Virus record (IMG/VR): IMGVR_UViG_2671180254_000013
Reading direction: 5' to 3' (one strand)
DNA length: 8,151 nucleotides
Source: a virus
Lineage: Duplodnaviria; Heunggongvirae; Uroviricota; Caudoviricetes
Made by a program: the position numbers and the translations under genes. Below the pieces are notes generated by a model. It worked only from the letters and a program-made list of their open reading frames with translations, was not told the origin of the DNA and made no database searches. The number at the start of each line of letters is the position of its first letter. Within the stretch, counting starts at the first letter, position 1. Positions 733 to 8,151 of this stretch are shown here, one piece after another.

Positions 733-1923
733 ATGGAAAAATTCCACATGTTTGATGACCGTATTTATCAGATGACTAATGGCGTTAAAGCTGCCGACCG
801 TATTATTTACACTGTCATGTTGAATGAACAAAAGTTTTATCACGATAAGGGGCAATATTATACCCCTTCATATGCTCATCTTGGTCAGTATGCTGGAATC
901 ACAAGAACATCCGTGATTGCATGTATGAAACAACTTGAGGCACATGGTTTAATCAAGAAAACTAACGTTGCAAGCAATCAGTGTGTTATTAAAGTTTATT
1001 CACTTGATGAAGTACCGGAGGTTTTAACAGAGCTTACAGCTAAGGAAGCCAGAAAGGCAAAGCTGGAGTCTAAAGTTACTCAGTCAGTCAAGAAAGATGA
1101 NNNNNNNNNNNNNNNNNNNNNNNNNNNNNNNNNNNNNNNNNNNNNNNNNNNNNNNNNNNNNNNNNNNNNNNNNNNNNNNNNNNNNNNNNNNNNNNNNNNN
1201 NNNNNNNNNNNNNNNNNNNNNNNNNNNNNNNNNNNNNNNNNNNNNNNNNNNNNNNNNNNNNNNNNNNNNNNNNNNNNNNNNNNNNNNNNNNNNNNNNNNN
1301 NNNNNNNNNNNNNNNNNNNNNNNNNNNNNNNNNNNNNNNNNNNNNNNNNNNNNGCTAAAGAGGTCGTTAAAAAGGAAGATAAAATCTCTGATGTGATTGC
1401 TAGTAGTGACCATAAAAACACACAGTGCCCCGCCACTGATGATGAATTACCGGATGTTGACCTTGATGATGAAGAAGACCCTGAAAAGGAATTGAAACGT
1501 GAACAGCGTAAAGCAGAAATTAAAGAAAGATTCAGAAATGCGAAGCTAAAGAACAAGGTTAGTGACCTCGATGACTTTGATGATAGTGACGATGATTTTA
1601 CTTTTACACCAAAAAAGAAAACTCACACCGAGCCAAAGAAANNNNNNNNNNNNNNNNNNNNNNNNNNNNNNNNNNNNNNNNNNNNNNNNNNNNNNNNNNN
1701 NNNNNNNNNNNNNNNNNNNNNNNNNNNNNNNNNNNNNNNNNNNNNNNNNNNNNNNNNNNNNNNNNNNNNNNNNNNNNNNNNNNNNNNNNNNNNNNNNNNN
1801 NNNNNNNNNNNNNNNNNNNNNNNNNNNNNNNNNNNNNNNNNNNNNNNNNNNNNNNNNNNNNNNNNNNNNNNNNNNNNNNNNNNNNNNNNNNNNNNNNNNN
1901 NNNNGTCCACCAGCTACGATTAA
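733..1923 (+). CDS. Winged-helix (HTH_36 / replisome-organizer-like) DNA-binding protein with acidic low-complexity C-terminal region; putative replication initiator or regulator; interior masked by N runs, 3' end uncertain
   Basis: ATG at 733 preceded by AAAGGAAA (SD-like, ~8 nt spacer); the TTG at 676 in the ORF track is a less likely start. N-terminal ~120 aa (MEKFHMFDDRIYQMTNGVKAADRIIYTVMLNEQKFYHDKGQYYTPSYAHLGQYAGITRTSVIACMKQLEAHGLIKKT) matches the pattern of HTH_36-type winged-helix domains found in phage/plasmid replication proteins. The segment between the N runs (1354-1641) stays open in the same frame and encodes a highly acidic/charged stretch (DDELPDVDLDDEEDPEKEL...DLDDFDDSDDDFTF). 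Stop TAA at 1921-1923 is only 5 codons after the second N run, so the real stop could lie inside a gap. Confidence 0.5.
   Translation: MEKFHMFDDRIYQMTNGVKAADRIIYTVMLNEQKFYHDKGQYYTPSYAHLGQYAGITRTSVIACMKQLEAHGLIKKTNVASNQCVIKVYSLDEVPEVLTELTAKEARKAKLESKVTQSVKKDXXXXXXXXXXXXXXXXXXXXXXXXXXXXXXXXXXXXXXXXXXXXXXXXXXXXXXXXXXXXXXXXXXXXXXXXXXXXXXXXXXXXXAKEVVKKEDKISDVIASSDHKNTQCPATDDELPDVDLDDEEDPEKELKREQRKAEIKERFRNAKLKNKVSDLDDFDDSDDDFTFTPKKKTHTEPKKXXXXXXXXXXXXXXXXXXXXXXXXXXXXXXXXXXXXXXXXXXXXXXXXXXXXXXXXXXXXXXXXXXXXXXXXXXXXXXXXXXXXXXXXSTSYD
1101..1353. other. Run of 253 N (assembly gap or masked sequence) inside the winged-helix gene
   Basis: Directly visible. Reading frame on both sides is compatible with a single ORF if the gap length is exact (1/3 chance by coincidence). 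Confidence 0.95.
1642..1904. other. Run of 263 N (assembly gap or masked sequence) near the 3' end of the winged-helix gene
   Basis: Directly visible. Only 18 nt of real sequence follow before the in-frame stop, so frame continuity cannot be assessed. Confidence 0.95.
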
Positions 1924-2240: not shown

Positions 2241-2269
2241 CTGACAATATGTTAAATAGATGTTAAGAT
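2241..2269 (+). promoter_or_regulatory. Putative sigma70-type promoter for the RHH operon: -35 CTGACA (2241-2246), 17-bp spacer, -10 TAAGAT (2264-2269)
   Basis: Hexamers read from sequence, 4/6 match to TATAAT and 5/6 to TTGACA, correct spacing, ~35 nt upstream of the ATG at 2306. No experimental support. Confidence 0.3.
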
Positions 2270-3074: not shown

Positions 3075-3150
3075 AAACGTTTTTAAGCCCCTAATCAGGG
3101 TAACTTAGGGAATCGCCTTAAGTGGTCTAAAAAAGGGGTTAAAACGTCTT
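3075..3150 (+). promoter_or_regulatory. Imperfect long-range inverted repeat (AAACGTTTTTAAGCCCCT 3075-3092 / AAGGGGTTAAAACGTCTT 3133-3150) between the RHH operon and the next gene; candidate operator or RNA structure
   Basis: Arms pair over ~14 bp with one or two bulges (AGGGG/CCCCT, TTAA/TTAA, AACGT/ACGTT). No T-run follows, so not a classic intrinsic terminator. Confidence 0.3.
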
Positions 3151-3178
3151 AGAATGCGATACAGGAAGGATTTTAAAA

Positions 3179-3484
3179 ATGAATTACCCAATGCAAATTA
3201 TGGTTGACCAAGAAACCATGAATTGGTTGATTGACCTGAACAGGTCGGGCTTTAATATCTATTTCATGCATTGTTTTGAAGCGTCAACGTATATTGACAA
3301 GCATATAATCAACGAAATTAAACTTGGTGACTATGTTCACAAGCTGGAAGTAACAGACCCATACAATAAGCGCTTTATCATTGAAGAGTGCAATCGACTT
3401 GATTTAAGCCCTGAGCAATTATTGAAGCTGAATGTATTCTTGACCTATCAGAATGAATTAAACCCTTACAGCGAGGTGATGTAA
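3179..3484 (+). CDS. Hypothetical protein, 101 aa
   Basis: ATG at 3179 preceded by AGGAAGGA with ~8-nt spacer; stop TAA overlaps the start of the next small ORF (TAATG). No recognisable motif. Confidence 0.55.
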   Translation: MNYPMQIMVDQETMNWLIDLNRSGFNIYFMHCFEASTYIDKHIINEIKLGDYVHKLEVTDPYNKRFIIEECNRLDLSPEQLLKLNVFLTYQNELNPYSEVM

Positions 3485-3561
3485 TGACACTCGTTATTCT
3501 CTGGATGACTTTAGGGTTATTTGTTGGTTGCTGGGTAGGTAATACGGTAAATAAGAATTGA
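3484..3561 (+). CDS. Small hydrophobic peptide, 25 aa (MTLVILWMTLGLFVGCWVGNTVNKN); single predicted transmembrane segment; candidate small membrane toxin / holin-like or membrane-modulating peptide
   Basis: ATG at 3484 overlaps the upstream stop (TAATG) and is preceded by GAGGTG with 5-nt spacer; 17 of the first 19 residues are hydrophobic or small. Below the length cut-off of the ORF track. Short ORFs are easily false positives; the RBS and coupling raise confidence. Confidence 0.4.
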   Translation: MTLVILWMTLGLFVGCWVGNTVNKN

Positions 3562-3585
3562 TGTTACCAATCTGTTAAAAAGCTG

Positions 3586-3640
3586 TTGACAAATAACCTT
3601 AAGCATGAGATGATGGTAATAGGGAAGAGCAACTCTTCCT
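3586..3640 (+). promoter_or_regulatory. Promoter-like element (-35 TTGACA 3586-3591, 17-bp spacer, extended -10 TGaGATGAT 3606-3614) immediately followed by a 7-bp-arm palindrome GGAAGAG-CAA-CTCTTCC (3623-3639), positioned like an operator
   Basis: Perfect -35 hexamer, correct spacing, TG-extended -10 with 4/6 match; the palindrome starts ~9 bp after the -10. The next long ORF starts ~350 nt downstream (3960), so the transcript would carry a long leader or be a non-coding RNA. Confidence 0.35.
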
Positions 3641-3680
3641 GAATTAAACTATTAATCATTCTACATCAATGATAGTTATT

Positions 3681-3736
3681 CTGAAAGGTGCAATGCTTTT
3701 CGCTACATGACCTTTCAGGTTAGTCTGAGAGGTCAT
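3681..3736 (+). ncRNA. Two overlapping, mutually exclusive stem-loops (9-bp stem 3681-3689/3710-3718; 7-bp stem 3707-3713/3730-3736); candidate regulatory leader / attenuator-like RNA element or sRNA
   Basis: Both inverted repeats are perfect (CTGAAAGGT/ACCTTTCAG and ATGACCT/AGGTCAT) and share bases 3710-3713, so only one can form at a time. They lie in a ~400-nt region with no ORF longer than ~19 codons. RNA identity is inferred, not shown. Confidence 0.3.
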
Positions 3737-3761
3737 CTCGAAAAGTACTCTTGTTCATTCG

Positions 3762-3784
3762 TTTGAATCCTTTTTGAATCCTTT
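3762..3784 (+). repeat. Tandem direct repeat TTTGAATCCTTT / TTGAATCCTTT (2 copies)
   Basis: Read directly from the sequence, inside the long non-coding region upstream of the 236-aa gene. Confidence 0.5.
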
Positions 3785-3959
3785 AGATGTTTTAATTTCT
3801 TCACCTTATGAATGGCCCTTTATAAGAAATTATCTAGGGCTATTCAGCTTTTAAAAAGCATACTTGGCAAACCGCCTTTTAAGTCTCTTCTAAGTTTAGA
3901 TAGGCTGTCAGGTGTGCTTTTTAAAAACTGAAACACTTCCGCTTAGAAGAGGAAAAGCA

Positions 3960-4670
3960 ATGACAAATGATATTTACATTAATGGCAAAGTGATTGATAG
4001 CTTCAGTGACTGGTCGCCACAGACTGAACATCCAGCTATCACTATTCAGCGTAAAGAGCATGACAAGCGTATTGAGCTTGAGCAATCGCTAAAGATGTCA
4101 CCAAAAACAACCATCTTTGTGTCTCCTGAGCCTCAAGAGATGCCTGATATTTGCAAGAGTGAAGCATTACTTGAGCTTGAAAAGAAATATTACCAACTGC
4201 TGAAAGAACAGCGCCTTAGATTAGATGACGCTTACAGCAAAGTTACCTTGATGCAATCAGCTATTGAGCCGTCAGAATTTGAGATTCAGGATGAATTGTC
4301 ACAGAAACCATTTGTCTATTACCAATACGAAGATAATGATGGTTTTGGTACTTTTCAAGAAAACGTCGCAGCCGTGATTAGTAGTCTTCCTGCTGGACAT
4401 CGAATTGTGAAGATGGTTAAGGCATCAAGAGGTGCTGGTCAGTTTATTTACATGACTAATAAGAGCGATGAAGAACTCGCTGAAATTGCTAGACAGAACA
4501 TCTTGGCATCACGTAACAAGCAACTTGATAATGTTAAGTTGTATCTCTCAAGAGAGCTTCAGGCTATGAAAGAGCTTGTGAAAGAATATGAAGATGCTAA
4601 GAAGATTGCTATGCAGGCTGATATTGAGCAGCTTACGAAGATTTCTAGCAAATATGCAAAGGCTATTTAA
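3960..4670 (+). CDS. Hypothetical protein, 236 aa, charged and coiled-coil-rich C-terminal half; function unknown (not recognisably a tail tube or tail chaperone)
   Basis: ATG at 3960 preceded by AGAGGA with 6-nt spacer (the GTG at 3912 in the ORF track is a less likely start); stop TAA at 4668-4670. No motif I can name. Confidence 0.6.
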   Translation: MTNDIYINGKVIDSFSDWSPQTEHPAITIQRKEHDKRIELEQSLKMSPKTTIFVSPEPQEMPDICKSEALLELEKKYYQLLKEQRLRLDDAYSKVTLMQSAIEPSEFEIQDELSQKPFVYYQYEDNDGFGTFQENVAAVISSLPAGHRIVKMVKASRGAGQFIYMTNKSDEELAEIARQNILASRNKQLDNVKLYLSRELQAMKELVKEYEDAKKIAMQADIEQLTKISSKYAKAI

Positions 4671-4694
4671 TTAATAATTAAAAGGTGGTGGTGA

Positions 4695-4901
4695 ATGATT
4701 GATTTAACAGAACGCTATGAGCTTATTAAAGCAATTAGTGAACGATTGAAAGAACAACCCAACAAACCAAAACGAATCAAATCATTCACCTCCTCTAAGC
4801 AAAAGAATAGAATCAGGAAAATAGCTAAGTGGTGTCTTGATAAATTACCAAGTGATTGTCAGATTGTTGGTGAAGATGGTAATTATTATCTGGTTAGGTA
4901 A
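4695..4901 (+). CDS. Hypothetical small basic protein, 68 aa (K/R-rich centre: NKPKRIKSFTSSKQKNRIRKIAKW)
   Basis: ATG at 4695 preceded by AGGTGG with 6-nt spacer; stop TAA at 4899-4901. Basic composition suggests nucleic-acid binding, but that is inference. Confidence 0.5.
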   Translation: MIDLTERYELIKAISERLKEQPNKPKRIKSFTSSKQKNRIRKIAKWCLDKLPSDCQIVGEDGNYYLVR

Positions 4902-4999
4902 CAAGATTGGTTGGGTGAAAATCTACGGGAGAGATTATCGAGTGATATCGGTAGTCTTTCCCTTTTTCGTATATGAACACTTAAAGAGGTGAAACATGA

Positions 5000-7180
5000 A
5001 TGAGCAAATTCACAGTTGATAGTTTTATCGTTGAACTTAGTTTCAGTGAAAACGTTATTAAGGGCTTGCAAAGAGTTGAAAAGGCAGCTTTGCAGTCAGC
5101 ACAAAGAATTGAACGCAATTTGAATAGAGCGTTTAAGGTCGATACCAAGCAACTTGACAGCAATCTGACAAGTTCTTTAGGGCAGCTTGAAAGGAAGTTT
5201 AATAAGACCTTTGACAAGATTGAGCAGAGAGCAAGAAGCACAAAAGCATTTCAGTTTGCCACCAGATTTAATGACACTGTTAATCCTCCAAAACAATCAA
5301 GGCAACCACGAATTAGCGGAAACAGAGCAATCACAGCAGCGCATAGCGTGAATATGTCTAAGCTTGGTGATATTAATCCGCTGATGGCTAAAATGTTTAA
5401 AGCACAGTATTACAGCTTAAGCGGTAAGGCTGGTAATATTGGAAGTGAAAAGTTTAACGCTGAACTTGCAAAATTAAATCAATCTCTTCGTGAAACGTTG
5501 AATAAACTCAGGTCACAGACAAAGACCGCCAGCATTAACAATACAAGCGACGCATTTAATAATCTTGCAAGCAATGCGATTAAATTATCTGGTGCATTTT
5601 ACTCTGTGATGGGTGCTCTTAACGCTTACAAGGCCATTATGAATGCAGGTCTTAAACGAGATTCCGCACAGAGAGCCGCTAAGTTTGTACTTGGTGATAA
5701 AGCATCTGAAGCTGAGGTATTTATTCGAAATTTAGCAGACAAGACAGGTCTTAATATCTCTGAAGGGCTATCAAGCTACGCTAAGTTTGCAGCAGGTGCT
5801 CAGGGTTCTATGTCACAGGAACAGACACAGGAGCTATTTGGTAATGCAACGGCTATGAGTCGCTTAATGGGGCTTTCTAACGATGAGCTAAACGGCATTT
5901 TGAGAGCATTTGAGCAGATGGCGAGCAAGGGCAAGATTCAGGCTGAGGAATTACGTGGGCAGTTAGGTGACCGTATGGCTGGTGCATTTAAGCTATTCGC
6001 TGAAGCATTGGGTATGACTGCTACAGAGCTTGATGCAGCCATGAAAAACGGGAAGGTACTTTCCGCTGATACTCTCCCTAAAGTCGCTAAACAGATGGGC
6101 TTGATGATTGATAAAGCGGGTGGCTGGGCTGAAGTCACTAAGAGCACTCAGACAGCTTTAGGTAAGTTAGCAAACAATTGGGATGATACGATGGTGAAAA
6201 TCTTCTCAGGTTCACAGGATGAGCTAAACGGCTTCTTATCCAGCCTGAGTAACCTGCTTAGTGAAATGGGGATGAGTTCTTCTATCGCTGGTGATGCTAT
6301 CGGTGGACTTATCGACATGCTTAAAGCTGGTGTAGATGATATTCGCGTATTCAATAACACCATTGAAGGCTGGATTTTACAGACTAAGAAGTTCTATTAC
6401 AGCCTTGATGACACTAAACGAAAACTACTTGATGAAGTCGGTGATGGTTTTATCAACTTCGTCAAAGGTCTTGCTATAGCGTTATCTGCAAAGACGCTAT
6501 TCAGTGCTACTACAGGGGTTATGAACCTGACAAGAGCAATCACAACGTTAGGTACAAGAGCTAATCAGGTGGCTGGTCAGGTAGCTACTGGTAAAGGTGG
6601 TGGAAAACTGAAAGGTGTAGCTGGTGGTGTAGGTAGTGCTCTTGCAATTGGTTATGCTGATGACGGTTATGAAACAGCGTTAGCATTAGCTTCAATGATT
6701 CCACAAATCAGAGGCGTCACTCTTGGTTTATATGCATTGAAGAAAGCACTGGATTTTATGAATCAGGAAGTAGTCAAAAACGCTAATATGCATCCGTCTG
6801 GGGTAGGTGTGGGTAGTGACTTTAATCCCGTGTATTCTGGTGACCCTAATAAACCGAATATGATTAACGAAGGATGGAGTAGAATTTTTAGTTCAATGGG
6901 TGAATTGTTTAACAATGCCACAATGAATATTGCAAGATTCAATCATCCAGAGTTAAACAACATTAAGCAAGATTCAGCATTAACGAGTGCAGATATTCAG
7001 GGTCTGAGGGATGAAATTAGTGCTTTGAGTAAGCGTATTCAGGAGCCAGTGAAAGTTTCACTTGGTGGTCAAGTTGTCGTTCGACCAGATGAACCATCTT
7101 TCTTTACTTTCAATCAATCAGCTAATGACCAGTTCACGCAGGATATGCTCTTAAGTTCAAGCTATCCAGAGGAAGAATGA
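5000..7180 (+). CDS. Phage tail tape measure protein (726 aa)
   Basis: ATG at 5000 preceded by AGAGGTGA with ~6-nt spacer. Alpha-helical, coiled-coil-like N-terminus. Central segment EELRGQLGDRMAGAFKLFAEALGMTATELDAAMKNGKVLSADTLPKVAKQMG matches the conserved tape-measure domain pattern of lambda-H-like proteins. Gly/Ala-rich hydrophobic segment (AGQVATGKGGGKLKGVAGGVGSALAIGY...LALASMIPQIRGVTLGLYAL) near the C-terminus is typical of tape measure proteins. No obvious lysozyme or peptidase motif. Confidence 0.75.
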   Translation: MSKFTVDSFIVELSFSENVIKGLQRVEKAALQSAQRIERNLNRAFKVDTKQLDSNLTSSLGQLERKFNKTFDKIEQRARSTKAFQFATRFNDTVNPPKQSRQPRISGNRAITAAHSVNMSKLGDINPLMAKMFKAQYYSLSGKAGNIGSEKFNAELAKLNQSLRETLNKLRSQTKTASINNTSDAFNNLASNAIKLSGAFYSVMGALNAYKAIMNAGLKRDSAQRAAKFVLGDKASEAEVFIRNLADKTGLNISEGLSSYAKFAAGAQGSMSQEQTQELFGNATAMSRLMGLSNDELNGILRAFEQMASKGKIQAEELRGQLGDRMAGAFKLFAEALGMTATELDAAMKNGKVLSADTLPKVAKQMGLMIDKAGGWAEVTKSTQTALGKLANNWDDTMVKIFSGSQDELNGFLSSLSNLLSEMGMSSSIAGDAIGGLIDMLKAGVDDIRVFNNTIEGWILQTKKFYYSLDDTKRKLLDEVGDGFINFVKGLAIALSAKTLFSATTGVMNLTRAITTLGTRANQVAGQVATGKGGGKLKGVAGGVGSALAIGYADDGYETALALASMIPQIRGVTLGLYALKKALDFMNQEVVKNANMHPSGVGVGSDFNPVYSGDPNKPNMINEGWSRIFSSMGELFNNATMNIARFNHPELNNIKQDSALTSADIQGLRDEISALSKRIQEPVKVSLGGQVVVRPDEPSFFTFNQSANDQFTQDMLLSSSYPEEE

Positions 7181-7192
7181 TTTAACGGTGTT

Positions 7193-8081
<889 letters not shown>

Positions 8082-8151
8082 TTTGGCATCCATCTCCGAT
8101 CACAGTTTGGCATCACAATCGATCACGATTTGGCATACTTCCGATCATTGA

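Follow-up and report, generated by a model that had tools for sequence, protein, structure and literature searches.

What does the gap at 3562-3959 do, in front of a block of tail genes, in an 8,151-nt stretch of Caudoviricetes DNA (IMG/VR record IMGVR_UViG_2671180254_000013; "the window" refers throughout to this whole stretch)? The initial annotation of the locus had suggested a regulated leader, and this idea has held up, with conservation, covariation and an asymmetry between G.U and A.C oppositions in its favor, although most of the specific elements put forward with it have not. We propose that the gap is probably a promoter followed by a cis-regulatory structured leader that gates the Shine-Dalgarno (SD) sequence of the first gene of the block. 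Covariation together with G.U pairs supports the 5' hairpin, SL-B and S1, and conservation with consensus folding alone points to SL-A and, in relatives, to T1, SL-C and T2.

The gap region is matched by blastn in 478 of 5,426 complete E. coli genomes at 70-92% identity, the segment 3553-3773 being the most widely retained part; carriers of the leader amount to about 9% of complete E. coli genomes, and the leader is present also in Shigella, E. albertii and Citrobacter. A 20-mer that is invariant in ten relatives found via a neighboring protein served as a probe and recovered 99 metagenome and 13 IMG/VR loci. The set of relatives used here comprises 96 distinct versions (97 before a chance match, L085, was dropped) of 366-565 nt, falling into 51 clusters at 88% identity, and a divergent relative from E. 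coli C4 that lacks the exact 20-mer (L125) was used as an unbiased check. Folding of the + strand of 3620-3962 yields -111 kcal/mol (z = -7.9 relative to shuffled sequences), and the corresponding z for the - strand is -4.7.

The gap had been described as free of open reading frames (ORFs) beyond about 19 codons, and in this form the statement is incorrect, as ORFs of 39 and 26 codons exist (Table 1). Its non-coding status stands, however, because none of its ORFs is conserved: no ORF is common to more than a minority of the 96 relatives, and we found no conserved ORF or leader peptide in the gap. We place the start of the gap at 3562 because the 25-codon ORF directly upstream appears to be conserved as coding; it is kept in relatives, with changes that look synonymous by eye in a 10-sequence alignment, and is without annotation in the RefSeq relatives inspected. 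A tRNA/tmRNA scan returned none. Comparison with Rfam 15 (4227 models, including riboswitches, C4 antisense RNA, IsrK and leaders), which had been named as a check, gave no riboswitch or other family match in the window or in a full-length relative; at a relaxed E-value there were only chance hits below the gathering threshold, such as microRNA precursors and snoRNAs.

Table 1. Features in and around the gap at 3562-3959 (window coordinates)
Feature	Position	Strand	Remarks
25-codon hydrophobic ORF, MTLVILWMTLGLFVGCWVGNTVNKN	3484-3561		Start overlaps the stop of the upstream gene (TAATG)
Three TGTTR direct repeats, 11-bp spacing (TGTTACCAATC TGTTAAAAAGC TGTTG)	3562..3588	+	Last repeat overlaps the -35
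Predicted extended -10 sigma-70 promoter	3586..3614	+	TTGACA 3586-3591, 17 nt, TG 3606-3607, n, GATGAT 3609-3614
5'-terminal RNA hairpin, GGGAAGAG-CAA-CUCUUCCU	3622..3640	+	1-2 nt past the inferred start, ~3621
Variable hairpin module, AACTATTAATCAT / ATCAATGATAGTT (window copy)	3641..3681	+	Low-conservation zone
Hairpin 1	3681..3718	+	Perfect in the window copy; without detectable selection
SL-A, GAAAGG-UGCAAUG-CUUUUC	3683..3701	+	Within the near-invariant 20-mer
SL-B (= hairpin 2), AUGACCUUUCAG / CUGAGAGGUCAU	3707..3736	+	10-12 bp
11-bp tandem duplication, TTTGAATCCTT x2	3762..3783	+	Private to the window copy
26-codon TTG ORF	3774-3854		Not conserved
Junction of ~100-nt deletion relative to most relatives	3784..3792	+	Near 3786; removes T1 and SL-C
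39-codon ATG ORF	3812-3931		Found in 5/96 relatives
T2 remnant, GCCCU...AGGGC hairpin	3815..3852	+	Interrupted U-tail UAUUCAGCUUUU
S1 hairpin	3843..3932	+	27-nt arms 3843-3869 / 3906-3932, 85% complementary; 36-nt loop
Anti-SD, CUCUUCUAAG	3885..3894	+	In the S1 loop; exact reverse complement of 3942-3951
SD region, CUUAGAAGAGGA	3942..3962	+	Core 3946-3953; with AUG 3960 of the 236-amino acid (aa) gene
T3, strong intrinsic-terminator-like hairpin	4927..4970	+	Hairpin 4927-4962, 15-bp stem + U-run; between the 68-aa and tape-measure genes

Covarying hairpins and the ribosome-binding site

The 3' half of the leader contains a long hairpin, S1, that was absent from the list in the initial annotation. 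Among 29 sequences of four types S1 has 25 pairs, of which 14 have changed on both sides, and 93.5% of cells are paired; none of 500 shuffles reaches its covariation and no slid register comes close. The loop carries an anti-SD that is complementary at 10 of 10 positions to CUUAGAAGAG (3942-3951), which overlaps the SD of the 236-aa gene (start at 3960). The pairing is retained, with different bases, in three further sequence types (AUCUUCUAAGUGU with ACACUUAGAGGA, UUCACCUCU with AGAGGUGAA, and AUUCACCUC with GAGGUGAAU), such that each of the four types has 9-12 bp of complementarity between loop and SD and cognate duplexes of -14 to -19 kcal/mol. With shuffled loops, the cognate energy is attained in 0-2 of 500 cases in seven representatives, and in 11-40 of 500 in the three of type III. 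Pairing between loops and SD regions from across the I/II versus III/IV divide is clearly weaker (-6 to -12 kcal/mol); for types I and II, which have CUUCUAAG in common, cross-pairing is about as strong as cognate pairing. A complement within the same 5' untranslated region (UTR) that is kept when either side changes is what an SD-sequestering element predicts, and it is found in all four types. UGCUUUUUA within S1 has a resemblance to boxA, but its bases are paired in S1 and this reading was set aside.

Two further hairpins, located closer to the promoter, had been proposed to be mutually exclusive. Both are perfect in the window copy, with arms CTGAAAGGT (3681-3689) and ACCTTTCAG (3710-3718) for hairpin 1 and ATGACCTTTCAG (3707-3718) and CTGAGAGGTCAT (3725-3736) for hairpin 2, and they do overlap, sharing ACCT at 3710-3713, but only hairpin 2 (SL-B) behaves as a selected structure when covariance of the paired arms is examined. 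In SL-B, 93% of cells are paired, four pairs have changed on both sides through A-U, G.U and G-C series, and the covariation score exceeds that of all shuffles (0/500 reach it), whereas the covariation of hairpin 1 is no better than that of shuffled sequences (343/500 do as well), and on this ground we rejected it as part of a switch. In 13 of 24 sequences a central pair of hairpin 1 cannot form; the 5' arm of this hairpin never varies, whereas the 3' arm changes along with the other arm of SL-B. An alternative helix around SL-B, CUUUUCG/CGAAAAG, was likewise rejected, a central pair being broken in 18 of 31 sequences and the helix being absent in L125.

The palindrome GGAAGAG-CAA-CTCTTCC at 3623-3639, which stretches to 3622-3640 with a G.U pair, is present just after the -10 as reported, but the operator role suggested for it does not agree with how it varies. 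A hairpin with a purine 5' arm and a pyrimidine 3' arm is found at this position in every relative in several sequence versions (GGGAGAG/UCUCUCU, GGAAGAG/UUUUUCC, AGAGAG/CUCUCU, GGGAG/CUCCC and others); three pairs have changed on both sides, G.U pairs occur, and the sequence, loop and register shift. Because sequence and register vary while complementarity stays, and because G.U pairs are used, we interpret the palindrome as an RNA hairpin and not as an operator, and with transcription expected from the -10 position to start at about 3621 it would form the 5' terminus of the RNA.

These comparisons make it quite improbable that the gap consists of a DNA operator palindrome and a switch of the attenuator or riboswitch type formed by hairpins 1 and 2. 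The perfection of both hairpins in the window copy, their 4-nt overlap, and the ability of hairpin 1 to form still in most relatives (86% of cells paired) speak for such a switch, but a terminator/antiterminator pair maintains both helices and has a U-tract after the terminator helix, and hairpins 1 and 2 do neither: hairpin 1 lacks covariation beyond shuffles with a 3' arm that follows hairpin 2, and the sequence after hairpin 2 is AUCUCGAAAAG rather than a U-tract. The shifting sequence and register of the palindrome, its G.U pairs, and the absence of an Rfam riboswitch or leader match also argue against it.

The pairing statistics indicate which strand is folded. SL-B contains 42 G.U cells and one A.C cell and is 99% paired when read as + strand RNA but 85% as - strand RNA, and S1 contains 82 G.U and 33 A.C cells; the excess of G.U over A.C in both hairpins (42:1 and 82:33) therefore identifies the + strand as the folded strand. 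The same observations bear on a further explanation, that the inverted repeats act as DNA in an island replication origin, packaging site or recombination site. Mobile islands need origin and packaging sites, and the gap is AT-rich and repeat-rich with long inverted repeats, but so strong an asymmetry between G.U and A.C is unexpected for DNA elements and the complementarity between loop and SD has no DNA-level rationale. In relative L003 the iterons lie inside the initiator gene and there are none in 3562-3959, and the gap was rejected as the replication origin; a packaging site is conceivable, but we regard a DNA-level role as a whole as very improbable.

Predicted promoter, terminators and short transcript

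The gap begins with what is, as predicted from its sequence, a conserved near-consensus extended -10 sigma-70 promoter. The TTGACA and TG-extended -10 at correct spacing that were noted at the outset are present and are kept in 95-96 of the 96 relatives: the -35 is TTGACA in 95, TG is at -15/-14 in all 96, and the spacer is 17 nt in all. The site has every mark of its class (a -35 near TTGACA, a spacer of 16-18 nt, TG, and a -10 with A2 and T6) and is the top promoter match of the whole window, with 10/12 positions plus TG. The -10 hexamer is CATAAT in 81 relatives, GATGAT in 13 including the window copy, and GAAGAT in two, CATAAT being a better -10 than the GATGAT of the window copy. Positions 3563-3602 form the most conserved stretch of the neighborhood (0.93-0.99 identity, above that of the flanking genes), the promoter spacer is conserved too, and AT-rich -10-like hexamers follow the -10. 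The TGTTR repeats upstream (0.01 matches expected by chance) keep their spacing in the divergent relatives L110 and L125 although the intervening bases differ, and could possibly be a site for a DNA-bound regulator or a UP-like element.

A second promoter-like site is found at window 2241-2269 ahead of the small-protein operon (CTGACA-17-TGtTAAGAT, with TTGACA at the equivalent site in L003, 10212-10249). It too has TGTTR repeats at 11-bp spacing as well as the TGTTGACAA context of the leader promoter, and it is possible that one regulator is common to both.

Downstream of the 5' hairpin is a poorly conserved zone (3641-3681) in which relatives have unrelated hairpins, (GGAT)n runs or insertions. 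Also seen in relatives is a hairpin cassette of about 29 nt, GAGGATAGTCTTCTATCCGAAGTCTAT, located just after the -10 in some of them (for example L010, L018 and L027) and upstream of the tape-measure gene in others (for example L012, L033 and L124), two unrelated positions as would be expected of a tiny mobile insertion. SL-A, which follows the variable zone, is invariant in the ten relatives found via the neighboring protein, and is predicted by RNAalifold; its sole variant, in L125, is GAGAG-UGCAAUG-CUUUC, in which both arms are one base shorter and the loop is kept. For 17 relatives RNAalifold returns the 5' hairpin, SL-A, SL-B, a short AAAGU/GCUUU helix and T1, and does not return hairpin 1. 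The SL-A loop carries an AUG preceded by an SD-like AAGG, and the ORF from this AUG varies from 5 to 58 codons among relatives with no conserved peptide. Complementarity between SL-A and the start-codon region (3691-3701 with 3952-3962) was judged to be chance because the SD-to-AUG spacer is not conserved in relatives, and a match between AUGCUUUU and AAAAGCAU was dropped as weak and gone in L125.

Between SL-B and S1 the window copy departs from most relatives. A tandem repeat had been reported here and is present as an 11-bp duplication, but it is not a conserved feature, since relatives carry a single unit (86% gaps across one unit in the alignment). Just downstream is the junction of the ~100-nt deletion. 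In 64 of the 96 relatives there is a hairpin, T1 (GCCCUAA-N7-UUAGGGC followed by UUUCUUU), that a scan called terminator-like in relative L002, and RNA ending at T1 is predicted to be 183-259 nt long, or about 190-200 nt in most relatives. SL-C is an AU-rich 16-bp hairpin followed by U5, with one compensatory U-A to C-G change, and T2 is AAAGCCCU...AGGGC followed by U4-U7 in 83 of the 96; T1, SL-C and T2 are all predicted by RNAalifold in relatives. The T2 tail is UAUUCAGC (UAUU) in 12 of 96, including the window copy, and the scan called no intrinsic terminator (G+C-rich hairpin and U-tract) within window 3562-3959. Because T1 and SL-C are lost and T2 is weakened, the window copy should be leakier. 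A long leader with T1 is carried, for example, by E. coli OkiPb01716 (NZ_AP042701), and the short form by E. coli MSB1_9I and by a Shigella sonnei isolate. Further downstream, T3 is present in most of 48 distinct relatives examined by eye, in several stem versions.

These features raise the possibility that the promoter-proximal part is an independent, abundant small RNA acting in trans on host, island or helper-phage mRNAs, starting at the promoter and ending at T1 in most relatives and at the T2 remnant in the window copy (~230 nt), and with the CU-rich arm of the 5' hairpin or the invariant SL-A loop as candidate seed. A strong constitutive-type promoter, a 5'-terminal hairpin, an A/U-rich linker and a U-tailed terminator at a predicted 183-259 nt are all consistent with such an RNA, as is the retention of the promoter-to-SL-B segment in more genomes than the 3' part. 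However, conserved targets were not found: within the island, none of the sites complementary to the invariant 20-mer is remarkable, the 5' module is not significantly complementary to S1, and the types of 5' hairpin show no association with the types of downstream SD. The window copy, moreover, has no clean predicted 3' end, because T1 is absent and T2 is poor. We consider a trans-acting small RNA possible but rather unlikely, and note that it is compatible with the leader model and not exclusive of it.

A different role for the promoter, SL-A and SL-B would be as a processive antitermination device, either like lambda PR'/Q, with a protein loading at the promoter, or like HK022 put, with RNA hairpins modifying RNA polymerase, such that only transcripts begun at the leader promoter pass T1, SL-C, T2 and T3. 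The arrangement is suggestive, with a constitutive-type promoter separated from structural genes by three to four terminator-like hairpins in succession, two adjacent conserved hairpins just downstream of the promoter, a promoter spacer and upstream repeats whose unusual conservation fits a DNA-bound factor, and a terminated leader of ~190-200 nt in most relatives, similar to the 194 nt of lambda 6S RNA. The neighboring proteins nonetheless match no Q, N or other antiterminator family, the structure model of the 101-aa upstream protein is unusable for structure search (predicted local distance difference test, pLDDT, 53), and the resemblance to put or qut is one of architecture. Of the sigma-dependent promoter-proximal pause element and the Q-binding element that mark a lambda-type unit, the AT-rich -10-like hexamers past the -10 and the conserved spacer are what can be seen here. 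On balance we think this device doubtful as an account of the region.

A model for the leader and its relatives

Our preferred reading of the gap, as a promoter with an SD-gating leader, suggests the following sequence of events. The constitutive-type promoter would give RNA starting at about 3621, and with its ~340-nt 5' leader would serve the tail-gene block, comprising the 236-aa, 68-aa, tape-measure and baseplate-type genes. In most relatives this RNA would mostly stop at T1, SL-C or T2 to give a stable RNA of 183-259 nt, and the RNA that reads through would be poorly translated, with the anti-SD loop paired to the ribosome-binding site in one of two ways: in a loop-tail pseudoknot formed next to S1 or, at times when S1 is open, in a simple hairpin. 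T3 would be a further barrier ahead of the tape-measure gene. With terminators, SD occlusion and T3 all in place, expression of the block would need an antitermination or RNA-processing signal, and one possible form of processing is a cut in S1 by RNase III, which would separate the anti-SD from the SD. The signal would most plausibly appear on infection by a Felix-O1-like helper phage, although we are much less confident of any particular trigger than of the leader itself.

There are several points that weigh against this model. The start site, the efficiency of termination and the effect on translation are predictions, and the link to a helper phage is circumstantial. T1, SL-C and T2 are nearly invariant, and rest on conservation and thermodynamics rather than covariation; the covariation of S1 comes from about four sequence types, and the number of independent events is therefore small. 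In nested minimum-energy folds S1 forms and the SD is 50-90% unpaired, such that occlusion in the full-length leader needs either a pseudoknot or an opened S1. With the S1 5' arm blocked, all nine SD bases pair with the loop in the minimum-energy fold, and a loop-SD pseudoknot beside an intact S1 is sterically conceivable given the long loop and a linker of 4-9 nt. The 5' module could have provided a means of blocking the S1 5' arm in trans or in cis, but we rejected this because the complementarity is not significant (mean z = -1.1; window z = +0.3). Finally, the search of Pfam, PHROG and NCBIfam that yielded no Q, N or other antiterminator family covered the neighboring small proteins. Control of the tape-measure block by the region, as first suggested, is supported to the extent that a promoter and a structured RNA lie ahead of the block, but the link to the tape-measure gene is less direct than had been supposed because T3 separates it from the first two genes.

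We classify the region as a structured attenuated leader or translational operator that is a member of no named family, since neither a Q homologue, nor a C4 hit, nor a conserved seed-target pair was found. In architecture it is closest to the lambda late promoter PR', which has a 194-nt 6S leader RNA, the terminator tR' and antitermination by Q, and in logic to the P4 CI and P1 c4 RNAs and the SD-sequestering leaders of T4. As at PR', a constitutive-type sigma-70 promoter is followed by a predicted terminated leader of ~190-200 nt (in most relatives) with structural genes behind further terminators, but no Q-family gene was found next to the promoter, there is no sequence similarity, and the island leader has a putative SD-occluding hairpin that is not known from lambda. 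The P4 PLE leader/CI RNA and the P1/P7 c4 RNA provide a precedent for a mobile element that silences an operon through RNA from the operon's own leader, with ribosome-binding-site occlusion coupled to termination as the mechanism that our model shares. Unlike these, the island leader has no Rfam C4 match and no conserved complementarity between its 5' module and downstream sequences, and its anti-SD lies in cis in a hairpin loop.

Hairpins in 5' UTRs that sequester the SD are known from the early transcripts of T4 e, soc and I-TevI and from RNA thermometers, in which, as proposed here, a short anti-SD pairs with the ribosome-binding site of the downstream gene. The island differs from the T4 examples in that an internal late promoter was not found and the anti-SD is in the apical loop of a separate 27-bp hairpin, and it is for this latter reason that occlusion needs a pseudoknot or S1 opening. 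Leader hairpins processed by RNase III occur in the lambda N leader, at T7 early mRNA sites and in the pnp leader, and S1 is similar to these in being a long, imperfect stem (more than 20 bp) that directly precedes a ribosome-binding site, although cleavage of S1 is purely hypothetical. The IsrK RNA of Salmonella Gifsy-1 has small-RNA and mRNA isoforms, and the short terminated and long read-through isoforms predicted here, from one promoter in a phage-derived element and with structure-gated translation, would be comparable; there is, however, no Rfam IsrK match, and action of the short form on the long form is not supported by the comparison of the 5' module with S1.

The island and its genes

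The window represents most of a ~10-kb island in E. coli and Shigella chromosomes that has a small resolvase-type gene and a large serine-recombinase gene at its ends and occupies various chromosomal sites, ymdF/wrbA and yciI/tonB among them. Along the + strand, genes for a Dam-type methyltransferase and a lambda-O/DnaD-like initiator and a small-protein operon precede the gap, and the 236-aa gene, the 68-aa gene, the tape-measure gene and the gene for a baseplate-type protein (PHROG 3721) follow it. The leader module precedes at least two unrelated first genes in relatives, and is therefore conserved independently of the following gene. Window 3100-4700 has no similarity to any of 50,697 phage genomes, which indicates that the leader was not borrowed from known phages.

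The tape-measure and baseplate genes contain patches with 88-93% DNA identity to virulent Felixounavirus genomes. The tape-measure protein (window 5000-7180) is 33% identical overall to that of Felixounavirus garuso, with residues in the first ~45 and at ~300-400 being highly similar, a mosaic that suggests selection to fit some components of the phage's tail-assembly machinery. One paper notes that a virulent coliphage and a tape-measure gene on an E. coli chromosome, in a location where no prophage is predicted, have been linked by gene transfer (PMC11069274). Literature searches turned up no description of the island itself, of a Felixounavirus satellite or of a satellite carrying a tape-measure gene.

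The island may be a satellite or a defense island. In a more specific version of the model, the leader is the helper-sensing switch of an undescribed phage satellite or anti-phage island with tail genes borrowed from virulent Felix-O1-like phages; owing to a constitutive, terminated RNA of ~190 nt and a pseudoknotted ribosome-binding site, the tail genes would stay silent up to the point at which infection brings antitermination or RNA processing, a logic akin to lambda 6S/Q and P4 CI with unrelated sequence. We put this forward only tentatively and consider it unlikely in its full form.

If the leader reading is correct, it adds a new covariation-supported regulatory RNA without an Rfam counterpart in ~9% of complete E. 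coli genomes, and one that controls the single block tying a chromosomal island to virulent Felix-O1-like phages, which serve in phage typing and biocontrol. It would thus provide a practical way into the question of how such an island detects, makes use of or blocks a lytic phage, in the form of a promoter, defined hairpins and a 10-nt anti-SD open to mutation and compensation. Natural variants provide ready-made experiments, with or without T1 and SL-C, with intact or weakened T2, and with four types of S1 and anti-SD. All of the functional steps remain predictions; the region is of more interest than a generic intergenic hairpin cluster.

The 236-aa protein (window 3960-4670) is labeled 'transposase' in NCBI records, and an identical protein is on record from S. 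sonnei. It has no match in Pfam, PHROG, NCBIfam or PDB and more than 3,000 homologues (E <= 0.001), the 120 matches listed being from Escherichia, Shigella and Salmonella, and the label looks unsupported. A guide RNA of the omega-RNA/HEARO type serving this gene was rejected, the protein being too small and without a match in these databases. Neither the 236-aa nor the 68-aa protein has homology to Felixounavirus tape-measure chaperones.

The initiator gene holds two runs of N (window 1101-1353 and 1642-1904), the first of which matches an array in L003 (9054-9141) of three to four 23-bp iterons, ACCCAACCAGAATTTGGTTACCT; this array within the initiator gene, as in lambda O, is likely to be the origin. 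The baseplate-type gene (window 7337-8151) is broken by a 74-nt deletion near 7493 relative to L003 that shifts the frame, and its homology to relatives stops at ~8030. A second hairpin module, at window ~7195-7256 (CTACGTGAA...TTCACGTAG followed by CTCACGCTTAA), lies upstream of the baseplate-type gene, and in some relatives is instead upstream of the tape-measure gene; window 7181-7340 has no match among the 50,697 phage genomes. From 8023 onward the window is made up of ~23-bp repeats (TTTGGCAT...CGATC), which match unannotated stretches of Shigella sonnei plasmids at 98.5% identity and are probably the end of an inserted mobile element.

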